Shown here: positions 9,851-10,452 of the stretch, piece after piece | Layout: every line of letters starts with the position of its first letter | Position numbering within the stretch: position 1 is the first letter of the stretch | Source of the DNA: a virus | Taxonomy: Duplodnaviria > Heunggongvirae > Uroviricota > Caudoviricetes | DNA length: 36,219 nucleotides | Reading direction: 5' to 3' (one strand) | IMG/VR virus record: IMGVR_UViG_2879765931_000005 | Notes under the pieces: generated by a model | The model's database searches: none | What the model was told of the DNA's origin: nothing | Seen by the model: only the letters and a program-made list of their open reading frames with translations | Program-made: the position numbers and the translations under genes

Positions 9851-9926
9851 GGCCCTTTAGCTCAGTGGTGAGAGCGAGCGACTCATAATCGCCAGGTCGC
9901 TGGTTCAAATCCAGCAAGGGCCACCA
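9851..9926 (+). tRNA. tRNA with CAT anticodon, ileX-like (tRNA-Ile2/lysidine type; Met not excluded)
   Basis: GGCCCTTTAGCTCAGTGGTGAGAGCGAGCGACTCATAATCGCCAGGTCGCTGGTTCAAATCCAGCAAGGGCCACCA; near-identical architecture to E. coli ileX. Confidence 0.8.
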
Positions 9927-9927
9927 A

Positions 9928-10004
9928 CCGCCACTAGCTCATCAGGAAAGAGCGTCAACCCTTTAAGTTGAGTGTGCGAGGTTCGAGTCCCCGGTGGCGG
10001 TCCA
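9928..10004 (+). tRNA. tRNA-like gene, atypical anticodon loop (reads TTT with C at position 33); possibly pseudo-tRNA
   Basis: Acceptor CCGCCAC/GTGGCGG, D-arm, T-loop TTCGAGT and CCA end present; anticodon loop CCTTTAA is non-canonical and T-stem has an A-C mismatch. Confidence 0.4.
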
Positions 10005-10006
10005 GT

Positions 10007-10082
10007 GCCGACTTGGCTCAGTAGGTAGAGCAACTGACTTGTAATCAGTAGGTCACCAGTTCGATTCCGGTAGTCGGCACCA
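10007..10082 (+). tRNA. tRNA-Thr (anticodon TGT)
   Basis: GCCGACTTGGCTCAGTAGGTAGAGCAACTGACTTGTAATCAGTAGGTCACCAGTTCGATTCCGGTAGTCGGCACCA; cloverleaf with one T-stem mismatch. Confidence 0.7.
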
Positions 10083-10085
10083 TAT

Positions 10086-10160
10086 GCGGGCATCGTATAA
10101 TGGCTATTACCTCAGCCTTCCAAGCTGATGATGCGGGTTCGATTCCCGCTGCCCGCTCCA
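10086..10160 (+). tRNA. tRNA-Gly (anticodon TCC)
   Basis: GCGGGCATCGTATAATGGCTATTACCTCAGCCTTCCAAGCTGATGATGCGGGTTCGATTCCCGCTGCCCGCTCCA; perfect acceptor, anticodon and T stems. Confidence 0.75.
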
Positions 10161-10452
10161 GTCAGAGTCTTTCAGTCTGCGATGATGGGAAATCCCGGAG
10201 TGACTGAAAGACGTTTAAGTTATGAATGATCGCTTTTTTTTGCAAAATTGCTGTGCAGAAATACTAACCTTCGGGCAGGCGATCATTCATAAGCACTCTG
10301 CTTTTATTCCGATTAACTGTGAGTGGTTTGTTGGATAGAGTGCTTTCCTTACTGTATATATCGTTTCGCCCGCTTTTGCGGTTTTTTCTTTTCAAATCCC
10401 TTTCATTTCTCAGTGTAAAACTACGCCATCCGTTATTTGCGGAGGTGAGGCT

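Follow-up and report, generated by a model that had tools for sequence, protein, structure and literature searches.

Stx and other lambdoid phages of the 933W type carry the tRNA cluster ileZ-argN-argO in a slot that has Q/tR' on one side and the lysis or stx genes on the other. We analysed this slot in the lambdoid prophage of IMG/VR virus record IMGVR_UViG_2879765931_000005 (36,219 nucleotides, the whole of which we call the window), where four tRNA genes, numbered here 1 to 4, are followed by a structured RNA, the trailer, and then by a holin gene. The original prediction for this DNA had placed the cluster in the slot that holds tRNA genes and stx in Stx phages, and a homology comparison confirmed that the slot is that of ileZ-argN-argO and stx. 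The two clusters share a conserved promoter and a near-identical first tRNA, and their second tRNAs are homologous in the acceptor, D and T arms. However, the anticodon loop of argN reads CUUCGAA and that of its counterpart in the window CCUUUAA, copies of thrU and glyT stand in the window in place of argO, and the argN/argO cluster ends straight in a terminator, without a structured trailer.

A second point of comparison is counter-defence. Phage T5's Lys(UUU), Thr(UGU) and Asn(GUU) tRNAs counter AriB of the PARIS system, and the tRNA-Lys of phage SP15 counters PrrC170 (PMC12409363, PMC11555353). The window likewise has a tRNA with a UUU anticodon beside a tRNA-Thr(UGU), to which the related phage HK639 adds a tRNA-Asn(GUU), and its Lys-type tRNA departs from that of the host at the published cleavage and recognition positions (PMC12409363, PMC11555353, PMC2610378). 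In contrast to the virulent phage T5, the window represents a temperate lambdoid prophage, whose Lys-type tRNA has a body derived from an Arg tRNA. Moreover, a change of U33 is not reported for T5, and the Thr copy in the window is host-like at the AriB site.

For the trailer, parallels come from tRNA operons and from the late leaders of other prophages. In the tRNA operon glyW-cysT-leuZ, the 3' external spacer reportedly gives rise to the small RNA (sRNA) sponge 3'ETS-leuZ. This sponge lies between the last tRNA of its operon and an intrinsic terminator and is released by tRNA processing, as we propose for the trailer, but it is about 50 nt long, chromosomal and Hfq-bound and has known targets, whereas the trailer, at about 225 nt, is highly structured, is carried by a phage and lacks a known partner. 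In phage T4, the stable RNAs C and D (species 1 and 2) are structured RNAs of unassigned function that are co-transcribed in a tRNA gene cluster. Judged by description, they resemble the trailer as structured RNAs within a phage tRNA cluster, but T4 is virulent and its RNAs are placed between tRNAs, whereas the trailer comes before the terminator. STnc100/PasD, PasA/PasC and IsrK/IsrJ are, like the trailer, terminator-ended non-coding RNAs (ncRNAs) that lambdoid prophages carry in the interval from Q to the holin gene, and STnc100 adjoins the trailer in HK639 and Fels-1. Nevertheless, they have no sequence or covariance-model similarity to it; PasA/PasC lie on the opposite strand, and the trailer is longer and follows tRNAs.

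The interval studied here is probably a self-contained stable-RNA operon (a "moron") that sits in the leader of the late operon in a defective lambdoid prophage, with Q/PR'/tR' before it and a phage-21-type holin gene after it (Table 1). By sequence comparison, its architecture is a putative promoter, four tRNAs, a conserved three-hairpin RNA read on the + strand and an intrinsic terminator. The tRNA cluster itself is of a known kind and is annotated already in several phage records. To this we add a predicted RNA downstream of tRNA-Gly that is conserved, structured and terminator-ended, and an odd second tRNA, a derivative of argN with a Lys-type loop and a fixed C33, in a slot whose anticodon loop is unusually plastic. 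The Q-to-holin leader is a parking place for terminator-ended RNAs.

The trailer is predicted to fold into three hairpins, H1 to H3, over about 190 nt (10167-10343). Both long inverted repeats that had been pointed out are exact: the 11-bp repeat joins 10167-10177 to 10202-10212, the 14-bp repeat joins 10220-10233 to 10279-10292, and a third repeat pairs 10291-10299 with 10337-10345. On the + strand, the 292-nt stretch between the last tRNA and the holin gene folds much better than its shuffles (z = -4.33, with 0 of 200 shuffles as good); the corresponding value for the - strand is z = -2.17. The statement that these ~290 bp lack any open reading frame (ORF) holds for ORFs of at least 60 aa and fails for shorter ones, of which there are three (38, 43 and 45 aa), none conserved. 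For 10161-10452, searches with the Rfam 15 covariance models, those of STnc100, AgvB, AsxR, IsrK and GcvB included, found nothing at E<=1 in 2 kb, and only chance-level matches up to E = 10 in 311 nt. Our own covariance model has one strong match in the window, that of the trailer; its only other match there is weak (30310-30398, 14.4 bits, E = 0.047) and probably due to chance.

Of 5426 complete E. coli genomes, 530 carry the 292-nt stretch at 95-99% identity, and it is annotated in none of them. The copies of the window type in E. coli and IMG/VR are 97-99% identical and gave no covariation signal; divergent homologues, about 80 distinct sequences at 75-99% identity, were obtained through HK639 and two pattern scans of IMG/VR. 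In the RNAalifold consensus of the H2+H3 core, built from 38 sequences, 97.8% of the cells in 40 pairs are standard, compared with 34-50% in slid controls, and 8 of the 40 pairs have changed on both sides. A second sample, anchored independently on the D arm of a short-loop tRNA (see below), is 98.8% paired, with double changes at 5 pairs; one of the alignments was fitted to the model. The arms of H1 occur in 15 distinct combinations, in which 96.4% of positions are standard pairs; three positions show compensatory changes, and G-U pairs arise on the + strand only. In H3, three consecutive pairs switch from UA/CG/UA to CG/UA/CG between clades. The original prediction had offered two readings of the repeats and had made their conservation among related prophages the check: the helices are kept by compensatory changes in the homologues, which upholds a structured RNA in the late transcript and speaks against the scar of a lost cargo gene.

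The homologue in HK639 is 76% identical and keeps all the helices; a tRNA-Gly 3' fragment precedes it, and an annotated terminator closes it. The full order in the HK639 late leader (L127 1337-1960) is tRNA-Asn(GUU), the tRNA-Gly 3' fragment, the trailer with its terminator and STnc100, a PasD-like copy that scores 52.6 bits, above the gathering score. In Fels-1 of Salmonella LT2 (L410 897-2652), the Q-to-holin leader holds three STnc100-like copies (138, 59 and 83 bits) along with a tRNA remnant, H1 and an inserted ORF, STM0906.1n, whose product looks secreted. Fels-1 keeps H2 alone of the core (69 bits), and H2 is the most widely kept unit, while H1 is optional, being absent where the core directly adjoins tRNA-Gly. 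The core comes after varied cargo: tRNA-Gly with H1, tRNA-Gly alone, an ORF for a small membrane protein, or tRNA remnants. Among the matches listed for the trailer model in 100 loci, none fell in a Met-Arg-Arg locus, and a scan of genome contigs with the 15-mer GGTGGTTTGTTGGAT gave real matches only in L291 (Phytobacter ursingii) and L322, almost all matches being chance. The E2348/69 cluster, which consists of Ile, an unannotated gap and Arg and is followed by ISEc13, has no trailer, and the published RIL-seq data are therefore uninformative for it. Literature searches for the conserved motifs as text, for ileZ/argN/argO and for the HK639 late leader found nothing. Three proposed relationships of the trailer were rejected: descent of H1 from a decayed tRNA-Gly duplicate, for which local alignment was no better than with shuffles (p ~0.21); similarity or complementarity to GcvB, prompted by the shared 10-mer GGUCUGCGAU and at chance level (p ~0.2-0.5); and kinship with the PasA/PasC loci of E2348/69, to which blastn found no similarity.

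The weak hairpin with a T-run noticed downstream of the repeats is real (CCGC-UUUU-GCGG and U6 at 10370-10387); the automated terminator scan did not call it, as the hairpin is too short. Relatives carry the 6-bp version GCCCGC-UUUU-GCGGGC, and a G-to-T change in the window shortens the stem to 4 bp. A hairpin with a T-run ends 30-70 nt past the core in 40 of 46 distinct versions, as opposed to 12 of 138 shuffles, these terminators represent four or more unrelated sequences, and the HK639 record has a terminator annotated at the equivalent place. Beyond it, the next + strand ORF, where found, usually encodes a holin-like membrane protein, which belongs to various families and lies 205-660 nt away. 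STnc100 copies, each with a terminator of its own, extra terminators or an ORF intervene between the core and the holin gene in HK639 and Fels-1. Because the trailer has its own terminator, precedes unrelated holins and is separated from them by such elements, and because homology to the S leader of phage 21 starts only at ~10407, the trailer is unlikely to be the 5' untranslated region of the holin gene that the term "leader" had implied; on this evidence, the structured RNA is better described as the 3' module of the cargo slot. The true S leader has a feature of its own, a 10-bp perfect inverted repeat (10438-10447 / 10494-10503) that pairs the Shine-Dalgarno sequence (TGCGGAGGTG) with S codons 14-17 and by its sequence can sequester the former.

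As claimed, the cluster comprises four tRNA genes. ARAGORN finds all of them on the + strand, with the anticodons CAT, TTT, TGT and TCC, and the Rfam tRNA model (RF00005, gathering score 29) accepts them likewise, with 72.5, 44.4, 72.5 and 64.9 bits for tRNAs 1 to 4. The genes are 1-3 nt apart and all encode CCA; U33 is present in tRNAs 1, 3 and 4. The second tRNA, in contrast, has the C33 and odd loop that had been ascribed to it, the 7-nt loop being CCUUUAA, together with a T-stem mismatch, A51-C63, and U73. It is homologous to argN(UCG), from which it differs by U33C, C35U and G36U in the loop and by compensatory changes at pairs 7-66, 27-43 and 30-40. Of the features of a tRNA-Lys it has the UUU anticodon, but A73 and descent from lysT are absent (U73, argN-like body). 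The host lysT loop, CUUUUAA, is followed by U39-C40-A41; tRNA 2 differs from this loop at position 33 only and continues with G39-U40-U41. The minimum-free-energy fold of tRNA 2 alone gave no cloverleaf, and we used the covariance model because such a fold is uninformative for an unmodified tRNA.

This gene is present in 798 of the 5426 complete E. coli genomes, in 279 of them at 99% identity or more. RefSeq labels identical copies tRNA-Lys and leaves variants of 96-97% identity unannotated. C33 occurs in every Lys-type copy examined, and the Lys-type loop is invariant across more than 60 viral contigs. Related phage contigs carry short-loop relatives in the same slot. Their anticodon loops measure only 5-6 nt, and 56 copies of a near-constant body display 14 different ones; one identical 68-nt body bears 7 different loops, with an unchanged 5-bp stem and all stems paired. 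Examples (L131, L137, L140, L146, L154 and L201) lie directly 3' of tRNA-Met/Ile2, and ARAGORN assigns such genes two-base anticodons or labels them Phe(aaa), Phe(gaa) or Stop(tta).

PrrC cleaves tRNA-Lys 3' of U33, and RloC excises U34 (PMC2610378); phages are rescued from PrrC170 by a phage tRNA-Lys (PMC11555353), and the site of AriB is U36-A-A-U-C/A41 (PMC12409363). Positions 36-41 of tRNA 2 read UAAGUU, not UAAUCA, and C33 sits at the PrrC/RloC cleavage junction. On these differences, tRNA 2 may reasonably be read as an anticodon-nuclease countermeasure, most likely a nuclease-insensitive Lys decoder or a decoy. In a wider proposal, which we put forward tentatively and regard as rather doubtful as a whole, slot-2 tRNAs would be no ordinary decoders but act against tRNA-cleaving defences such as PrrC, RloC and PARIS, the copy in the window would imitate the loop of tRNA-Lys with a changed cleavage junction (C33), the loops of the relatives would be under diversifying selection, and the trailer would found a new family of phage ncRNAs, freed from the same precursor and trans-acting in the lysogen or during infection.

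Identical copies of tRNA 1 are labelled tRNA-Ile in RefSeq, 2730 records match it at 99% or more, and chromosomal copies with CAU and an ileX/ileZ-type body resemble it at 85-92% in every E. coli genome. tRNA-Thr equals K-12 thrU at 75 of 76 bases, the sole difference, A9G (window 10015), being a defect relative to its relatives; tRNA-Gly matches K-12 glyT at 75 of 75. In a scan of IMG/VR anchored on the 5' half of tRNA 2, the order Met-Arg(tcg)-Arg(tct) appeared 77 times and about 35 clusters were built on Lys(ttt)-Thr-Gly, 31 of them as the full Met-Lys(ttt)-Thr-Gly. The codons AUA, ACA and GGA are 1.4-1.8x enriched in the prophage ORFs, relative to K-12 reference values.

Upstream of the cluster, the -35 element TTGCAN and the -10 element keep the same register among 148 clusters led by tRNA-Ile2, in 136 of which the -10 is TATTAT, TATCAT or TATCTT, and the flanks further upstream diverge between lineages. 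The 17-nt spacing and the GC-rich discriminator are conserved as well; in the window, the latter is the 9-nt CCTGCGCCC, which reaches the 5' end of the first tRNA. We infer from this pattern that the tRNA operon has its own conserved sigma-70-type promoter.

Several other explanations have to be weighed. The structured region could be a cis element of the late transcript, either a processing-stabilising site for RNase III/RNase E or a regulator of the holin gene, that yields no separate product. It is always found in the interval from Q to a holin gene, on the strand of the late genes; its long near-perfect stems (11-14 bp), which enclose stacked inner helices, look like the RNase III sites of phages such as T7 and lambda; and Q-modified polymerase would pass the terminator of the trailer. 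Against this, the distance to the holin start and the holin families vary, other elements intervene in HK639 and Fels-1, the great majority of versions (40/46) have their own terminator, and the true S leader begins only downstream, from ~10407; we therefore judge a purely cis role unlikely. A protein-coding role has still less in its favour. The 38-aa ORF (10222-10338) exists in the window, two phage records annotate a hypothetical protein there, and a short frame, M-(G/I)-A-x-F-C-K-I-A-V, which would give a 10-13-aa peptide from the ATG at 10226, recurs in both clades. However, an ATG-started ORF of at least 30 aa is lacking in 46 of 67 distinct homologues, the 38-aa ORF being confined to part of one clade, and a T-run within it varies by 1-2 nt among close relatives; on this non-conservation and length variation we rejected the 38-aa ORF. 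Neither ATG is preceded by a Shine-Dalgarno sequence, both lie within the H2 stem, and a Cys/Arg swap in the short frame coincides with a helix-preserving switch from U-G to C-G, so that a small protein is hardly credible here. It is also very improbable that the functional RNA comes from the - strand, as do the antisense RNAs PasA/PasC just upstream of holin genes in EPEC prophages. These RNAs lie in the same slot but are read from the other strand (PMC8550237), and the - strand of the trailer also folds better than shuffles (z = -2.2). Yet only 86.2% of cells form standard pairs on the - strand as opposed to 97.8% on the + strand, a difference carried by 190 G-U cells which makes the + strand the better reading; the scan of the leader found neither a promoter nor a terminator on the - strand, and there is no sequence similarity to the PasA/PasC loci.

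For tRNA 2, the competing view is that of a decaying pseudogene that travels with useful tRNAs and whose odd loop has no function. Its score is the lowest of the four (44.4 bits), and C33, U73 and the A-C mismatch would fit such decay, as would the PPompW copies with a 1-nt deletion in the D arm, the variants that RefSeq leaves without annotation, the unannotated slot in E2348/69 and the 5-6-nt loops of the relatives, which cannot decode normally. In contrast, all stems are paired through compensatory changes relative to argN, and both the invariance of the Lys-type loop and the number of genomes with near-identical genes are at odds with a gene adrift. The short-loop relatives vary in the loop on an otherwise constant body, the opposite of what neutral decay predicts. 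We regard a pseudogene as a minority explanation.

A number of observations weigh against the interpretation of the interval as a functional operon with a countermeasure tRNA. C33, U73 and the A-C mismatch disfavour efficient decoding or charging of tRNA 2, and the Thr copy retains the AriB site UAAUCA, so that the cluster is an incomplete anti-PARIS set. The prophage ORFs are rich in Lys codons too; codon usage thus does not discriminate, plain supplementation being compatible with the counts. Two or three clades supply most of the covariation, which therefore reflects few independent events. HK639 has no room for a promoter between tR' and the first tRNA, and its RNA would therefore be made only by read-through from PR'. 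In the window, the terminator is weakened and the lysis cassette is broken by insertion sequence (IS) elements; this copy may therefore be decaying. Promoter activity as well as processing and stability of the trailer are deduced from the DNA.

With these reservations, the interval could work as follows. In the lysogen, transcription of the unit would start at a promoter of its own and stop at its terminator, which would shield the lysis genes from this transcription. RNase P and RNase E would excise the tRNAs, and the structured trailer would remain as a stable RNA in its own right, about 225 nt long and with the terminator at its 3' end. After induction, Q-modified RNA polymerase from PR' would pass through the whole unit into S. 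tRNA-Ile2, tRNA-Thr(UGU) and tRNA-Gly(UCC) would supply extra decoding of AUA, ACA and GGA, and tRNA 2, as an argN descendant with a Lys-like loop and C33, would serve as the decoder or decoy proposed above. By analogy with 3'ETS-leuZ and with RNAs C and D of T4, our best guess for the trailer is a trans-acting or processing/stability RNA released from the tRNA precursor.

The surroundings are those of a damaged lambdoid prophage. A DUF968 gene and rusA also lie upstream, before the Q gene. At 9672-9745, two Salmonella Gifsy sRNAs have weak Rfam matches, IsrK (22.5 bits) and IsrJ (23 bits), which span the short PR'-to-tR' transcript 3' of Q; the HK639 counterpart scores 34.6 bits against a gathering score of 37. 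The start of the holin, MKSM, is the dual-start motif of the pinholin and antiholin of phage 21. About 100 nt past the holin stop codon begins an IS66-family element (10767-14650), the transposase ORF of which is interrupted by an IS3-family element with ORFs of 100 aa and 272 aa; the same IS3-type pair of ORFs occurs twice more in the window, at 22230-23386 (-) and 24382-25538 (+). Lysozyme and Rz are encoded only beyond it, at 14743-15635, which splits the lysis cassette, and this displacement by the IS66/IS3 insertion is why we call the prophage defective. Near the left end of the window, tRNA-Asn(GTT) at 2700-2775 (-) and tRNA-Ser(CGA) at 3767-3856 (+) are probably chromosomal genes beside the integration site.

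Table 1. Annotated and predicted features of the interval from Q to the holin gene, in window coordinates.
Feature	Position	Strand	Evidence
Q antiterminator gene	8963-9652	+	Pfam PF06323, 305 bits
PR'-like promoter	9641-9669	+	promoter scan
tR' hairpin	9714-9749	+	terminator scan and inverted repeat I3
Promoter-like site, TTGCAA + 17 nt + TATTAT	9813-9841	+	sigma-70 consensus scan
tRNA 1, tRNA-Ile2-type (CAT), ileZ-like	9851-9926	+	ARAGORN; Rfam 72.5 bits
tRNA 2, atypical, argN-type body, UUU anticodon	9928-10004	+	ARAGORN Lys(ttt); Rfam 44.4 bits
tRNA 3, tRNA-Thr(UGU), copy of host thrU	10007-10082	+	ARAGORN; Rfam 72.5 bits
tRNA 4, tRNA-Gly(UCC), copy of host glyT	10086-10160	+	ARAGORN; Rfam 64.9 bits
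Hairpin H1, 11-bp stem around a small GGG/CCC hairpin	10167-10212	+	exact inverted repeat
H2+H3 core, extent of the covariance model	10211-10356	+	model R1: 158.5 bits, E = 1.6e-38
Hairpin H2, 14-bp outer stem	10220-10292	+	exact inverted repeat; fold; compensatory pairs
H2 inner 8-bp hairpin, conserved loop AAAUUGCUG	10237-10261	+	consensus structure
H2 mini-hairpin CC-UUCG-GG	10268-10275	+	fold
Hairpin H3, three stacked helices, near-invariant 3' strand GGUGGUUUGUUGGAU	10293-10343	+	fold; consensus structure
Putative intrinsic terminator, weakened allele, CCGC-UUUU-GCGG then U6CU4	10368-10392	+	sequence; relatives
True 5' leader of the holin gene; Shine-Dalgarno GGAGGTG at 10441-10447	10393-10452	+	phage 21 homology from ~10407
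Holin S, phage-21-type class II, 71 aa, MKSM dual start; outside the RNA unit	10453-10668	+	Pfam PF04971, 121.5 bits

In summary, lambdoid prophages make up a large share of the accessory genome in E. coli, Shigella and Salmonella, and the leader from Q to the lysis genes is the home of stx and of several virulence-linked sRNAs. About 10% of complete E. coli genomes hold in that slot a ~190-nt RNA of conserved structure that the databases leave unannotated, and about 15% hold a tRNA-Lys look-alike with C33. The trailer RNA is a defined new target for study at the RNA level and by deletion, and the related tRNA-like genes, with their hypervariable anticodon loops, offer a clean, testable case of loop-focused diversification. 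To our knowledge, the counter-defence tRNAs demonstrated to date belong to virulent phages. If the role suggested here is true, a counter-defence tRNA in a temperate prophage would extend this idea, and resident prophages could alter the sensitivity of their host to its own abortive-infection systems.

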